Assembly: GCA_045532985.1 (NCBI GenBank) | Contig: JAZSGY010000047.1 | Coordinates: 1 to 58,219 of the forward strand | Reading direction: 5' to 3' | Length of the DNA: 58,219 bases | From: Eubacteriales bacterium | GTDB lineage: Bacteria; Bacillota; Clostridia; Oscillospirales; CAG-272 | Part shown: in pieces, positions 3,379 through 6,087 of the stretch | How the letters are laid out: each line of letters begins with the position of its first letter | Numbering within the stretch: the stretch's first letter is position 1 | Notes under the pieces: model-generated | Told to the model about the DNA's origin: nothing | The model's input: the letters and a program-made list of their open reading frames with translations, nothing else | Database searches by the model: none | Made by a program: the position numbers and the translations under genes

Positions 3379-4695
3379 GTGGAAGTTAAAGTATTGAAAT
3401 TTGGCGGTAGCTCGCTTGCCGATGCATTGCATTTCGGCCGCGTTGCCGATATTGTAAGGGCGGAGGAGTCGAGAAGATACGTCGTACCGTCCGCCCCCGG
3501 AAAACGTTTTAAGGAAGACGATAAGGTCACCGATCTTCTGTATCAGTGCTACGACCTTTCAAAGCGCGGTGAGAGCATTGACGCCGTCTTTTCGCGTATC
3601 AAGGATCGCTATAACGACATTATCCGCGACCTCGGTCTTGATTTTTCGCTTGAGGATGAGTTCGCGAAGATCTATTCGGCGATCCAGCATCTTCCGGGCC
3701 GCGATTACGTTGCAAGCCGCGGGGAATACCTGAGCGGTCTTGTCTTGGCGAATTATCTCGGATTTGACTTCATCGATGCCGCAAACGTTATTTTCTTTAA
3801 GGAAAATGGCACCTTTGATTCCGAGCGTACGAACGTCGTACTGAATGCGATCTTGAAGCAGCATTCTCACGCCGTCGTTCCCGGCTTCTACGGCTCTATG
3901 CCGAACGGAACGATCAAGACCTTCTCGCGTGGCGGGTCCGATATCACGGGCTCTATCGTTGCACGTGCGGCAGGGGCAGATCTTTATGAAAACTGGACCG
4001 ACGTTTCGGGCTTTTTGAAGGCAGACCCCCGTTGCGTCGACAATCCGAAGCCGATCAAAGAAATTACGTATAAAGAACTGCGCGAGCTTTCCTATATGGG
4101 CGCCACCGTACTTCATGAGGATGCTATTTTCCCCGTACGCTTTGCGGGGATCCCGATCAACATCCGCAATACCAACGCCCCCGAGGATCCTGGGACGATG
4201 ATCGTATCCTCTGCAACCTATCACGACGGTGACGACGTAATCACCGGCGTCGCAGGTAAGGTCGGTTTTTCTATCCTCAATATTGAAAAGGATATGATGA
4301 ACTCCGAGATCGGATTTGGCAGACGCGTTCTTGAGGCGCTTGAGAATAACGGTATCTCCTTTGAGCACTTGCCGAGCGGCATTGATACGATGTCGGTCGT
4401 TATCTCTACGAAGGATCTGGAAGGGAAGCGCGACAAGATCATCAACGACGTATGTCGTCTTGTTGAGCCTGAATTCATCAGCATTGAGGACGGTCTGGCA
4501 CTTGTTGCAGTCGTCGGACGCGGAATGGTCAGCAACAAGGGAACTGCTTCGCGCGTTTTCTCAGCCTGTGCCGCGGCGTCCGTCAATATCAAAATGATCG
4601 ACCAGGGTTCAAGCGAGCTGAATATCATCATTGGTGTCAGTGAGGATGATTATATTCCCGCACTCAGAGCAATTTACAATGAATTTGTAAAATAA
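3379..4695 (+). CDS. lysC: Aspartate kinase
   Basis: KFGGSS, FSRGGSD, WTDVSG, ELSYMGATVLH and two C-terminal ACT domains; AAGGAG RBS with GTG start. Confidence 0.93.
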   Translation: MEVKVLKFGGSSLADALHFGRVADIVRAEESRRYVVPSAPGKRFKEDDKVTDLLYQCYDLSKRGESIDAVFSRIKDRYNDIIRDLGLDFSLEDEFAKIYSAIQHLPGRDYVASRGEYLSGLVLANYLGFDFIDAANVIFFKENGTFDSERTNVVLNAILKQHSHAVVPGFYGSMPNGTIKTFSRGGSDITGSIVARAAGADLYENWTDVSGFLKADPRCVDNPKPIKEITYKELRELSYMGATVLHEDAIFPVRFAGIPINIRNTNAPEDPGTMIVSSATYHDGDDVITGVAGKVGFSILNIEKDMMNSEIGFGRRVLEALENNGISFEHLPSGIDTMSVVISTKDLEGKRDKIINDVCRLVEPEFISIEDGLALVAVVGRGMVSNKGTASRVFSACAAASVNIKMIDQGSSELNIIIGVSEDDYIPALRAIYNEFVK

Positions 4696-5084
4696 AAAAT
4701 CACCCGCTTTAGCGTGATACTCTTAACGGAGTATTCACGCTAACTAAGTTTGCCCTTACGGGCAAGTGAAGTTATCTTCGATAGTGAAGTTCACTTTGTG
4801 AGTGAAGTTTCGCCTGATGGCGAAGTGATGGGCAAACTTAACTTCACTTGTGCGTAGCACAAACTTCACTGCGTAGCAACTTCACTTTTGCGATAGCAAA
4901 AACTTCACTAACAGAAAAAGAGATAACATTTCGGCTACGAACCGATTTGTTATCTCTTTCTGTAGTTATAAGGGTTTGGGCTTAGCCCATATTGCATTTG
5001 ACTAGTCAAATGCGATGCTCGCACTTAATAGCGCTTTTCAAATTCTCCGCTAAGAACATCACCCATTTGCGGGTGATTTTTTAT
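4692..5084. mobile_element. Putative non-autonomous ~360-bp insertion inside a palindromic bidirectional terminator
   Basis: Perfect 16-bp outer inverted repeat 4692-4707/5069-5084. Junction sites ATCAC-CCGC-TT-TAGC-GTGAT (4699-4718) and ATCAC-CCAT-TT-GCGG-GTGAT (5058-5077). Subterminal inverted repeat 4714-4735 vs 5041-5062 (18/22 identical). No credible ORF. Mobility is inferred. Confidence 0.6.
4745..4909. repeat. Mirror-symmetric array of 9-nt repeats separated by variable hairpins
   Basis: AGTGAAGTT at 4765, 4783 and 4801 (partial AGTGA at 4824); reverse complement AACTTCACT at 4840, 4862, 4878 and 4901. Each spacer between same-orientation copies is a self-complementary stem-loop. Confidence 0.9.
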
Positions 5085-5500
5085 GCAAGCTTCTTCAGGA
5101 CGCCCTGGAACCATTCTTCAACTTTAGCAGATTCTTCGGCACTGACCTTCTTCATAAACTTGAAGGGAAGTCCTCCGTTAATGTAAAGAACGTCATCTAT
5201 AACGTTCGTGCCTGCTTCCTTGATCATATTGATCACAGGCTCAGCCTTTGCCGCATCGCCGTCAACGATAAAAGCAACGTTCTGTGCGCGGGACTTATCG
5301 AGTGATTTTGCGAACAGATCAAAGGTCGTCGTCGTTTTGCCCTTCGCAGTGAAAACGATGATTACCAAGCGCTCGCGCTCGCAGGGATAAGCAGGGGGAA
5401 TGATATCGGCCTTATAGTCCGAATTCGAAGCAAGAGTGCTGGCAATCGAGAGAAGCTTGCCCTTGCTCGTGTCTGTCAAAACACGCAGTTTCATCTTCAT
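5081..5500 (-). CDS. Flavodoxin-fold hypothetical protein
   Basis: 139 aa with GGAGG RBS before the ATG at 5500. The beta-alpha pattern (LRVLTDTSKG...LVIIVF...NVAFI...GTNV...EEWF) resembles short flavodoxins. Confidence 0.6.
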   Translation of the reverse strand: MKMKLRVLTDTSKGKLLSIASTLASNSDYKADIIPPAYPCERERLVIIVFTAKGKTTTTFDLFAKSLDKSRAQNVAFIVDGDAAKAEPVINMIKEAGTNVIDDVLYINGGLPFKFMKKVSAEESAKVEEWFQGVLKKLA

Positions 5501-5558
5501 ATGAAAATCCTCCAAAATACTGGTAAAATAATTTTGATACAACCAGCCTATCGATACT

Positions 5559-5587
5559 ATTATATCATATCCTTCTATAAAAAGCAA
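5559..5587 (-). promoter_or_regulatory. sigma-A promoter of the flavodoxin-like gene
   Basis: TTGCTT-17 bp-TATAAT with TG extended -10 on the minus strand. Confidence 0.7.
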
Positions 5588-6087
5588 TAGCAAAATCGCA
5601 TTTTACGTGCACACCCGGTGATGAGAAAGAACGGGAATTCTAAAAAAACAAAATCACAGCAGGGCGATGTAAAATAACACCCCTCGTGCACACCGCCGTA
5701 ATTATACAAAATGCAAATTTTGTATCAAATAGAGAGGTGAAATAAGCGTATCAAGGGCAAAAGAGTTAAATATAAGGCGTTTTACGGTGTTTGACCGATT
5801 AATAGACGTTGCCGAGTTTCTGACAGATATTCAGTAAATAATATGGCTTGATCAACGGCAAAACAAAAAACAAGCCGATCGTGGTAAAATAAAAACAATC
5901 TGCGAACGAAAAAACTTCAAGCTATCGTTATTCATCTAGAACACAGTTAATGCATTTAAAAGTTCCTCAGATTTTCTTCGTCCTTTTTTCTTTCCGTAAT
6001 TTAATTTTTCTTATTATCATATTATTATCTAAAAGAAATCTTTTGTATAATAATGTTACAAAGAAACAACAAATTTATTAAAAGTGA

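Follow-up and report, generated by a model that had tools for sequence, protein, structure and literature searches.

The intergenic region between lysC and a convergent 170-aa ORF raises the question of how a bidirectional terminator shared by two genes came to be split by several hundred nucleotides encoding no gene, and what could have moved them there. We analyzed this region within a 58,219-nt stretch of DNA (hereafter the window, referring to the whole stretch). The original prediction, made from these letters, placed a 359-bp gene-less element in the center of the terminator. The gene-less insert was recovered by our analysis, but its extent was not: comparison with other copies set the bounds at 4711-5065, giving 355 bp of non-coding DNA between two TT dinucleotides (4709-4710 and 5066-5067). 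The two registers are indistinguishable from the window copy alone because TTT is present on both sides. On balance, we consider it probable, with limited confidence, that 4711-5065 is a MITE of a terminal-inverted-repeat transposon family hitting terminator loops and that a RAYT-like Y1 transposase is its most likely enzyme.

A modular non-coding element splits a bidirectional terminator

The segments ATAAAAAATCACCCGC (4692-4707) and GCGGGTGATTTTTTAT (5069-5084) were confirmed to form a perfect 16-bp inverted repeat, which takes in the lysC stop codon (TAA, 4693-4695) and the stop codon of the minus-strand ORF (5081-5083). The extended 44-nt arms (4692-4735 and 5041-5084) are 80% complementary, and a direct repeat (4696-4718 and 5055-5077) matches at 74%. 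An inner inverted repeat of 18 out of 22 positions, also predicted, turned out to be the element's actual terminal inverted repeat. The ATCAC...GTGAT junction sites of equal length that were proposed at the same time are peculiar to the window copy: a 7-nt match between left flank and right end was found in 1 of 39 copies, and the mean similarity was 3.41 compared with 3.38 for mismatched pairs.

The element folds far more strongly than shuffled sequences on both strands (z of -13.4 and -13.2, with 0 out of 100 shuffles folding as well), and the ORFs inside or overlapping it are just 35-64 aa long. The parts of the element are listed in Table 1. Variants of the left-end (LE) stem among copies, GATACTC/GAGTATC, GATGTCC/GGACAATC, and GTTATCC/GGAGAAC, show compensatory changes, and the AA at 4742-4743 is able to pair with the flanking TT. 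In the first arm of the array, GTGAAGTT words at 4766, 4784, and 4802 are separated by mini-hairpins, while the second arm has AACTTCAC words at 4840, 4862, 4878, and 4901. The slot of the central hairpin is the position of the promoter and gene in longer relatives, and in some copies this hairpin, with a T-run, is the end point. A T-run follows the local terminator-like hairpin (5058-5077) that the right terminator arm forms with the right end (RE). The suggestion that junction hairpins preserve termination holds at the right junction of the window copy but is not a family rule. Homologues of the 170-aa ORF are convergent to lysC in four relatives and directly adjacent to it in two; the earlier label of flavodoxin was not confirmed for this ORF.

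Table 1 Features of the element and its insertion site (window coordinates).
Feature	Position	Strand	Basis
lysC (aspartate kinase), gene of the terminator hit	3379-4695	+	ORF; Pfam AA_kinase 110 bits, ACT_9 91 bits
Left arm of split bidirectional terminator (A-run, ATCACCCGC, T)	4692-4708		Perfect complement of 5068-5084
TT, left flanking dinucleotide	4709-4710		Identical dinucleotide at both sides in 32/35 unique copies
LE hairpin, with the left terminal inverted repeat as outer arm	4711-4741	+	Compensatory changes among copies
Two-armed word/mini-hairpin array	4744-4910	+	Words; Rfam Gut-1 match
Central hairpin (ACAGAAAAAGAG...CTCTTTCTGT)	4911-4963	+	Stem covaries among copies
Conserved 3' core: GGGC-TTA-GCCC hairpin and GCATTTGAC...GTCAAATGC hairpin	4972-5025	+	Copy comparison
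RE terminal inverted repeat (AATTCTCCGCTAAGAACATCACCC and A)	5041-5065	+	16/21 positions match inverted LE outer arm
TT, right flanking dinucleotide	5066-5067		Dinucleotide survey of copies
Right arm of split terminator	5068-5084		Complement of left arm
Convergent 170-aa ORF	5081-5593	-	ORF; no Pfam family at E<=0.001

Copies of the element occupy the loops of different terminators

The original prediction had proposed searching with the ends for other copies and for longer versions carrying genes, and both were found. At least 10 loci of the element were identified in its own genome (1.8 Mb). Matches were found in 24 of 41 related genomes (its own included) and also in many metagenome-assembled genomes of ruminant-gut Clostridia, with at least 120 matching stretches in genome_contigs. 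Copies from other species share 86-95% identity with the window copy, whereas lysC DNA is just 65-72% identical. No blastn match to the element was found in plasmid and phage collections, and the LE and RE patterns had 0 matches in IMG/VR. An apparent 1.7-kb long copy (G013:C4) was rejected, as it is a normal copy broken by an IS3-family element.

The insertion rule was derived from 35 unique full copies, across which LE and RE are conserved. The same dinucleotide was present at both sides in 32 of these copies (TT in 27, AT in 3, and TA in 2), and a matching AA variant was seen too. Each copy is flanked by the two arms of a terminator palindrome, and this palindrome differs from site to site. 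A complementary run of at least 6 bases was found in 33 of 35 flank pairs (median 10, compared with 5 for mismatched pairs). The targets share structure and not sequence. Copies flanked by AT retain an internal CGCTAA suited to TT, and therefore the dinucleotide derives from the target. The copies showed no preferred orientation with respect to the flanking genes: of 46 copies, those in one-directional contexts were split 10 to 7.

Uninterrupted terminators were found in related contexts. The orthologous lysC genes of two related species (G018 and G023) end in plain terminators, and a paralogous uninterrupted terminator is located beside another copy in the element's own genome (C21). An exact 10-mer search for paralogous empty sites gave just two paralogous terminators, both in one locus (L212) and with a different loop. 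Judging only from the paralogous uninterrupted terminators, the two flanking bases would be a true target duplication. Generic features of a MITE are present: terminal inverted repeats, an apparent target-site duplication, and a small, non-coding, multicopy sequence. The copies establish family membership, the insertion rule, and, with the gene-bearing relatives described below, the modular anatomy. They also bear out the expectation of a non-autonomous, multicopy element targeting terminator palindromes, since its ends occur at many other sites.

These observations suggest that the family, in uncultured gut Clostridia, inserts into the loop of intrinsic-terminator palindromes and leaves an identical dinucleotide, mostly TT, at both sides. 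The target would be recognized by the shape of the hairpin and its A-run/T-run setting, not by its sequence.

Longer relatives carry a RAYT-like transposase or a PF05635 gene

Longer elements with related ends were found in the same type of site, carrying the gene of either a RAYT-like Y1 (HUH) transposase or a PF05635 four-helix-bundle protein. The RAYT-bearing elements comprise four complete examples and one degraded. In L233, exactly the LE arm of the window copy abuts a frameshifted RAYT gene (NF047646, E 1.8e-8), which is followed by the 3' core. L302, L356, L341, and L332 are complete elements of 1.15-1.65 kb with an intact RAYT-like gene and inverted repeats that are related but not identical; their flanks are terminator arms (11/11, 13/14, 10/11, and 14/15 complementary, respectively). 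The full 3' core is present in three of them and only a remnant in L332, and blocks homologous between L332 and the MITE are in collinear order. More generally, the 3' core of the window copy is found directly after RAYT-like or PF05635 genes in relatives, with a collinear blastn match to L332. Four elements, which come from different genera or families, share a conserved stretch of ~95 nt between the left repeat and the RAYT start codon. L356, L341, and L332 have the element's kind of ends but no array, and L177 and L240 have the array, a PF05635 gene, and the 3' core between the element's ends but no RAYT.

The L302 protein scores 24.5 bits against Pfam Y1_Tnp, for which the cut-off is 23. 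Among proteins of solved structure, E. coli TnpA-REP (4ER8) is its best match by sequence (E 3.5e-4), with an alignment spanning the HUH motif (HIH) and the Y region (YxYxNP).

The window copy appears to be a derivative that retained both ends, the 3' core, and the Gut-1-type word/hairpin array while the gene is absent. It is therefore dependent on an enzyme made elsewhere, and mobilization in trans, as originally predicted, agrees with the existence of longer versions with genes. The likeliest enzyme would be the RAYT-like Y1 transposase of the longer relatives with related ends. RAYT-type Y1 enzymes act on single-stranded DNA hairpins, and we infer that a RAYT mobilizes the family and that the terminator hairpin is read as single-stranded DNA.

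Several results count against this assignment. The element's own assembly contains no RAYT homologue, also by tblastn (E>0.5). RAYT-like genes are not commoner where the element is present, occurring in 9 of 19 genus genomes with it and 2 of 5 without it. The full 3' core directly follows the stop codon in only 5 of 60 RAYT-like loci examined, most of which lack these ends. GTAG-type REP hairpins are found beside and inside these RAYT genes, separate from the element ends, and could be the real substrates of these RAYTs; the GTAG tag is absent from LE and RE. Terminal inverted repeats and a 2-bp duplication are also unlike the products of known Y1 transposition (IS200/IS605). IS200/IS605 elements have no terminal inverted repeats, make no duplication, and integrate beside a tetra- or pentanucleotide of fixed sequence. 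The family studied here resembles them in enzyme superfamily and in an end hairpin with compensatory changes, but differs in its inverted repeats, its matching dinucleotide on both sides, and its structural target, and the traits of IS200/IS605 PATEs, which combine an absence of inverted repeats and duplication with a fixed flanking tetranucleotide, were not found. To our knowledge, shape-targeted loop insertion with a 2-bp duplication has not been described for HUH enzymes.

A close parallel for such an enzyme is the REPIN/RAYT system. As outlined in PMC3337134, REPINs are likewise short non-coding repeats whose ends pair into a long hairpin, spread in intergenic regions with frequent A-run/T-run flanks, and each repeat type is paired specifically with a type of ~170-aa Y1/HUH protein (TnpA-REP, PDB 4ER8). 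A Y1 protein with the HUH and Y motifs was found here in relatives only and not in the element's own genome. The present family differs in that the RAYT-like gene lies inside a unit bounded by inverted repeats, itself in a terminator loop; in that its ends lack the GTAG tag, which is found on the distinct GTAG-REPs of these RAYTs; and in its 350-400 bp with an array module, its gut Clostridia hosts, and the 2-bp repeat flanking each copy.

The array resembles the Gut-1 RNA motif

The array of the window copy matched the Rfam Gut-1 model (RF01706) at 4741-4813 on the plus strand with 49.0 bits, just under the gathering score of 50. An array upstream of a PF05635 gene in the same genome (C98:11182-11478, L053) scored 66.4 bits, above that threshold. 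Weinberg et al. (2010, PMC2864571) introduced Gut-1, an orphan RNA of gut metagenomes, with hairpins separated by a conserved GUGAAAU-like linker. The left arm of the array corresponds to this motif. The difference is that here the motif is half of a two-armed array inside a mobile element, and that words and adjacent PF05635 proteins vary together.

A more specific reading can be formulated, which we regard as tentative and rather doubtful as a whole. Y1/HUH (RAYT-like) transposons would find their targets by shape, namely the exposed loop of a terminator hairpin, with two bases duplicated, and their gene-less derivatives would spread orphan Gut-1 arrays that serve ring-forming PF05635 (Avd/23S-IVS) proteins as binding platforms or decoys.

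Empty-site, circle, and expression searches

A pattern scan of metagenome_contigs gave 0 matches to the predicted empty site CACCCGCT-TT-TGCGGGTG. The closest lysC relatives in that collection have at most 68% protein identity, and the species of the window is therefore not represented there. We also compared 4250-5550 with the contigs from four runs, three of DNA and one of RNA. Contigs of the species stop at the element edges, and the summed depth over the element is 50-300x that of the flanks, as expected because the element is a repeat. The sole joint across the element, from 4695 to 5154 in one contig with a 27-nt side, does not correspond to the empty site that had been predicted. The circle junction that had been predicted was sought and not found: no back-joined form was present among the contigs of these four runs, an absence of little weight as these are assembled contigs. 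RNA-run contigs (X16) are identical to the element over 4735-4796 and 4767-4858, which is not proof of transcription, and a consensus scan detected no convincing promoter inside the element.

Candidate enzymes and alternative explanations

In agreement with the original prediction, none of the 12 recombinase/transposase families searched was found on the contig of the window, and 10 of them had no match anywhere in the assembly. The element's own genome had no match to IS30, IS110, Y1, rve, resolvase (PF00239), DDE_Tnp_1, DDE_3, or TnpB. This genome does encode four tyrosine recombinases and a 304-aa reverse transcriptase elsewhere, with no link to the element. Among 61 genus genomes, IS30-family transposases were found in 21, IS110 in 6, and PDDEXK_3 in none.

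IS30-family elements make 2-3 bp duplications and use palindromic hot spots. Like the present family, they combine a 2-bp flanking repeat and inverted repeats of 20-30 bp with a preference for symmetric targets. The element could be a conventional MITE moved by a DDE transposase of IS30-like behavior that makes 2-bp staggered cuts and prefers symmetric targets, with the RAYT and PF05635 genes as passengers. The 22-nt terminal inverted repeats, a 2-bp repeat varying with the target (AT, TA, and AA each matching on both sides), the varied genes of the long elements, and the presence of IS30 transposases in the genus would fit. We nevertheless judge this unlikely, given the absence of all these transposases from the element's own genome. 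Six genomes (G003, G011, G012, G019, G022, and G024) have many copies but no IS30, so that the presence of IS30 does not track that of the element; element-like ends were found at 0 of 10 IS30 loci, and among the elements bounded by these ends none was seen to contain a DDE gene. The mechanism that the original prediction proposed, in which a serine recombinase or an IS110/IS1111 enzyme would carry out conservative site-specific recombination at a 2-bp core, is much less probable still. The same dinucleotide at both ends, an LE hairpin resembling the palindromic targets, and a gene-less element with an RNA-like module are all features described for MITEPpu9, which is moved by ISPpu9 (IS110 family) in Pseudomonas putida; MITEPpu9 also resides in extragenic palindromes, and its left-end inverted repeat resembles the target (PMC12288879). 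According to the same account, however, ISPpu9 requires a DEDD transposase and a REP target of conserved sequence. In the present family, the targets are mutually unrelated and differ at each site, with no conserved attB, and no resolvase or IS110 gene is present in the own genome; the rare IS110 genes of the genus are unlinked, with 0 of 6 loci having the element's ends. A guide-read target, as with bridge or seek RNA, was not apparent, as the interior matched its own flanks (mean 6.0) about as well as those of other copies (5.87), and the AT copies with internal CGCTAA have a dinucleotide from the target.

Mobility or maintenance could alternatively depend on a PF05635 four-helix-bundle (Avd/23S-IVS-type) protein that reads the array words, making the family an IVS-like insert in hairpin tips and the window copy an orphan array. 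Arrays of the same word classes were found upstream of PF05635 genes, whose proteins are 92% identical when they share a word (median of 22 pairs) compared with 51% between words (231 pairs), and PF05635 was present in 4 of 4 other-family genomes with element matches compared with 2 of 12 without. The 23S rRNA IVS described in PMC4990558 is likewise a hairpin-tip insert closed by complementary ends, may contain this ORF, and has, according to that source, long been suspected to originate from a mobile element; L177 and L240 show the same arrangement. The site here is, however, a terminator instead of an rRNA helix, and the window copy has no ORF. The association is partly circular, as the query contains the array; 0 of 32 PF05635 loci in the genus sample had LE or RE ends, and some elements with these ends have no array. 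The protein is a helical bundle of 115-130 aa with no known DNA-cutting activity, and overall we find this explanation improbable. That the copies are not mobile DNA at all, but small-RNA genes or terminator extensions spread via ordinary duplication or recombination, seems hardly credible. Their extreme predicted structure, the match of the Gut-1 model to the LE-to-RE strand, and the excess of G.T over A.C on that strand (47 compared with 22 single mismatches in 39 copies) would suit such a family, but it does not account for precise ends, a target-derived dinucleotide, unrelated host sites, an identity across species far above that of lysC, and longer versions that share the ends and carry genes. 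A role as RNA would be consistent with mobility but no substitute for it.

Implications

If our preferred reading of a MITE family mobilized by a RAYT-like enzyme is true, terminator hairpins would be a safe-harbor target, found by structure, for a whole transposon family. This would explain why, in many uncultured gut Clostridia, the repeats are located precisely at the ends of genes, and why metagenome assemblies break at these points. The RAYT-like Y1 transposase is a testable candidate enzyme for the family, and REPIN/RAYT biology is not known to have been described in this phylum. With such an insert the 3' UTR becomes longer and a terminator can be rebuilt or weakened, which is relevant to the annotation and interpretation of gene ends. 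The Gut-1 motif, an orphan since 2010, gains a genomic context as half of an array whose word follows the adjacent PF05635 protein. If the tentative reading of shape targeting and array decoys were also true, the Gut-1 RNA motif would be linked to the IVS protein family and to REPIN-like repeats, all three of them long-standing orphans.

The element in the lysC terminator

The original prediction described a perfect inverted repeat formed by ATAAAAAATCACCCGC (4692-4707) and GCGGGTGATTTTTTAT (5069-5084), and the sequence matches this description. The repeat contains the stop codons of lysC (4693-4695), whose identity was confirmed by its AA_kinase and ACT domains, and of a convergent 170-aa ORF (5081-5083). 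The proposed label of flavodoxin for this ORF could not be confirmed, with no Pfam family matched at E<=0.001. Homologues of the ORF (5081-5593, minus strand) were observed convergent to lysC in four relatives and as its direct neighbours in two (G018 and G023). Using a repeat finder, pairing was found to reach 44-nt arms with 80% complementarity (4692-4735 / 5041-5084), and on both strands the whole stretch folded much more stably than shuffles did (z -13.4 and -13.2). The spacer between lysC and the 170-aa ORF contained only a plain terminator hairpin in two related species, in which these neighbours are also convergent. An unoccupied version of this locus itself was sought in the sequence collections and not found. 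The likeliest ancestral terminator at this site is ATCACCCGC-TTTT-GCGGGTGAT.

In this copy, the right end of the element (RE, ATCACCC) pairs with the right arm of the target, forming a local terminator-like hairpin with a T-run. The underlying 7-nt resemblance between target and element end (4699-4705 vs 5058-5064) was found in only 1 of 39 copies. A second likeness, of about 9 nt, was observed between the right flank and the left end of L332, a longer relative. Such rare likeness may be due to chance or to a mild preference for targets mimicking the joined ends.

Insertion into terminator loops

The element is a non-autonomous unit with inverted repeats at its ends; it inserts into the loops of terminators and has the same dinucleotide on both sides. 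Left and right ends were paired via profile searches, yielding 51 pairs, of which 36 passed the end filter and 35 were unique. The elements start with AGCGTG (variants GGCGTG and TGCGTG) and end with ATCACCC plus one variable base. The dinucleotides outside the element were identical on both sides in 32 of the 35 copies (TT in 27, AT in 3, and TA in 2), whereas marginal frequencies predict 22. An additional copy, L240, was flanked by AA on both sides. The 20-nt flanks constitute the two arms of one palindrome, which is different at every site. The longest complementary run between flanks had a median of 10 nt compared to 5 in mismatched pairs, and was at least 6 nt in 33 of 35 copies. A is enriched in the left outer flank (0.69) and T in the right one (0.66), a composition characteristic of bidirectional intrinsic terminators. 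The copies flanked by AT retained an internal CGCTAA suited to pairing with TT, and the dinucleotide therefore derives from the target. For the copy on contig C21 of the same genome, the target also exists as an uninterrupted paralogue, GGACG-AT-CGTCC; the corresponding filled junction is ...CCCT-AT-CGTCC.

Anatomy of the element

The left end (LE) forms a 31-nt hairpin; compensatory changes among copies maintain its stem, and its outer arm is the inverted repeat of RE. LE is followed by an array, which in the window comprises three GTGAAGTT words with mini-hairpins between them and then four AACTTCAC words with mini-hairpins. Of 39 full copies, 33 contain a 7-mer word two or more times and, after it, two or more exact reverse complements of that word. 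The word classes number at least seven across copies that have the same shell (GTGAAGT, GTGATAT, GTTATGA, TCGATAT, TGAATTG, TGAAATC, and GTGATGT). The left arm of the array scored 49.0 bits against the Rfam family Gut-1, one bit below the gathering score. After the array come a central hairpin, a conserved 3' core of two hairpins, and RE. Single mismatches in helices, read on the LE-to-RE strand of 39 copies, were G.T in 47 cases and A.C in 22. This excess hints, with moderate strength, at a role for this strand as RNA or single-stranded DNA; since the copies are related, the count is not a clean test.

Family size and spread

The original prediction suggested searching for other copies and for longer versions carrying genes, and both were found: other copies in the same genome and in relatives, and long elements with the same or related ends. 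Element-related sequence was present at many places in the element's own assembly (1.8 Mb, 107 contigs).

Location and composition of the element, its copies in the same genome and its gene-bearing relatives
Feature	Location	Extent	Composition or flanks
Element in the lysC terminator	window	4711-5065	TT at 4709-4710 and 5066-5067
Full copies, same genome	C93, C98, C6
Copy split across two contig ends, same genome	C48 + C74
Truncated copies, same genome	C85, C21, C25, C56
Array without ends, same genome	C88
Solitary LE hairpin within a terminator, same genome	C38	~5590
Long relatives	L177, L240	about 1.24, 1.43 kb	LE hairpin, array (GTGATAT), sigma-70 promoter, PF05635 gene (98.8 bits), 3' core, one passenger gene, RE
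Long relative	L233		LE arm exactly as in the window, then at once hairpin-promoter and frameshifted gene, then 3' core
Complete elements	L302 (G006), L356 (G299), L341 (G296), L332 (G270)	1.15-1.65 kb

Matches to the element were found in 24 of 41 related genomes, its own included; within the genus 19 of 24 had them, and among other families of the order 4 of 16. In species-representative genomes, at least 120 stretches matched the 20-nt left-end pattern. Among the matches listed with titles, all 80 loci were from uncultured Clostridia MAGs, and many of the MAGs among the matches listed were labelled as goat, sheep, roe-deer, or water-deer hindgut. No matches to the element were found in plasmids or phages, including IMG/VR for the LE and RE patterns. 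Copies from other species were 86-95% identical to the window copy over up to 360 nt, while lysC DNA within the genus was only 65-72% identical; the element therefore either moves between lineages or is strongly constrained.

Several variants were observed. Lone LE hairpins of about 30 nt were centred in terminator palindromes on C38 and in L192, L208, L209, and L225, flanked by TT..AA, AT..AT, or TA..TA so that the whole forms one longer perfect hairpin. These could be footprints, minimal elements, or deletion products. At L212, a stretch of 7 kb contains three occurrences of one terminator sequence: two are uninterrupted (loop ATTTC), and an element splits the third. C21 (2600-3180) contains only the 3' half of the element. 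The right arm of the terminator there, together with about 60 nt of downstream sequence, is present in duplicate, once intact following a tRNA gene and once following the element. A sub-family (C6:5600-5945, L234, and L241) carries its 3' core of about 55 nt in the opposite orientation to the other parts of the element, and the loop of the LE hairpin was flipped in three copies (L029, L194, and L227). In L049 (G013:C4:1400-4200), an IS3-family insertion sequence (orfA and rve orfB) was nested in the loop region of the central hairpin.

Arrays and PF05635 genes

The genome harbors three PF05635 genes (23S-rRNA-IVS / Avd-like four-helix-bundle). Upstream of two of them stand two-armed arrays that use different words (ATGAATTG and GTGAAAT), and the third is cut by a contig end. 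The array on C98 is a bona fide Gut-1 match (66.4 bits). PF05635 genes were found in 54 of 61 genus genomes, with up to seven in each, compared to 1 of 14 control genomes. Among 23 PF05635 loci with an assignable word, median protein identity was 92% for loci with the same word (22 pairs) vs 51% for loci with different words (231 pairs), and similar words accompany similar proteins. The window's word, GTGAAGT, stands upstream of a PF05635 gene in the genome G061 and is used by none of the three genes in its own genome, where the window array is therefore an orphan. Of 32 PF05635 loci sampled in the genus, not one had LE or RE ends. The array with its gene and the shell are separable modules.

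A second architecture was observed at three loci of genus relatives (L055, L057, and L058), with tandem 7-8-nt words directly upstream of the PF05635 gene and their complements directly downstream. This places the gene in the loop of a long hairpin, like an rRNA intervening sequence. In addition, a 304-aa reverse transcriptase (RVT_1, 67.8 bits) was identified near a contig end of the window's own genome (C23:18563-19135; L050:3327-4241, minus strand), downstream of a 114-aa ORF without known family and with no PF05635 gene adjacent.

Gene-bearing relatives and candidate mobilizing enzymes

The long relatives L177 and L240 were flanked by TT or AA and complementary terminator arms. In L233, the second half of the frameshifted gene matched the NCBIfam model of REP-associated tyrosine transposases (RAYT; E 1.8e-8). 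The four complete elements each carry an intact RAYT-like gene of ~170 aa with passenger ORFs downstream. Their inverted repeats are related to those of the window (inner CTTAGCGGAGAA / TAACGGAGAA; L332 right end ...TCTCCGATAAGATCATCACGC), and their terminator-arm flanks are complementary at 11/11 (L302), 13/14 (L356), 10/11 (L341), and 14/15 (L332) positions. The 3' core directly follows the RAYT stop codon in L302, L356, and L341, with only a remnant in L332. The ~95 nt from the left repeat to the start codon are conserved among L233, L332, L356, and L341, and L332 has collinear blocks in common with the gene-less element (MITE). The L302 protein passes Pfam Y1_Tnp (24.5 bits, cut-off 23). 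Among solved structures, its closest match by sequence is E. coli TnpA-REP, the alignment covering both the HUH motif and the tyrosine region. The RAYT genes of L302, L356, and L332 have GTAG-tagged REP-like hairpins of their own (e.g., GTAGGGGAGGGG...CCCCTCCC), both beside and inside the gene, those inside apparently being translated through as protein.

The MITE could be a deletion derivative of such a RAYT-bearing element, moved in trans by a RAYT-type Y1/HUH enzyme that would recognize both the end hairpin and the target loop in single-stranded form; from these relatives, we consider the chances of this origin and mobilization about evenly balanced. Recognition as single-stranded DNA agrees with the structural nature of the target, with covariation in the end hairpin, and with the stability of the mini-hairpins, but on its own accounts for neither the inverted repeats nor the 2-bp repeat. 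The main rival is a DDE transposase with IS30-like behaviour. IS30 itself was present in 21 of 61 genus genomes, but its distribution does not follow the element and its ends are unlike those of the element. RAYT-like genes are widespread in the order: a search with the L302 protein found them in 59 of 301 genomes. Most of them lack the element's ends, and their presence does not track the element in 24 genus genomes (9 of 19 with the element vs 2 of 5 without). The RAYT family model matched 20 of 61 genus genomes, with all scores below its cut-off, and the full 3' core followed the RAYT stop codon in only 5 of the 60 loci taken from both searches (L302, L328, L329, L341, and L356).

The own assembly, which is 95% complete and in which repeats would often be unassembled, contained no RAYT gene and no matches to IS30, IS110, Y1, rve, resolvase, DDE_Tnp_1, DDE_3, or TnpB. 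The original prediction had read the junctions as att-like sites of a 359-bp cassette and likened them to those of large serine recombinases or IS110/IS1111. This site-specific recombinase model is unlikely, given that neither resolvase nor IS110 was matched in this assembly and that IS110 (6 of 61 genus genomes) does not follow the element's distribution and has unlike ends. PDDEXK_3 was found in none of the 61 genus genomes. In none of the copies did the interior match its own target better than the targets of other copies.

Relation to known systems and effect on the host locus

The window element works like a MITE, and its probable parent is reminiscent of a REPtron that has become a real transposon. 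Formal features are shared with MITEPpu9/ISPpu9 and with 23S-rRNA intervening sequences, but the defining tests of both systems exclude the element. In the open-access literature searched, no account was found of a family of this kind targeting terminator loops, or of Gut-1 arrays accompanying PF05635 genes. New here are the junction statistics, the comparison of words and proteins within one genus, and the RAYT-bearing relatives. At the host locus, lysC transcripts would extend by ~390 nt, to the rebuilt hairpin and T-run at 5058-5083, and termination of the opposite gene looks weaker in the filled site.
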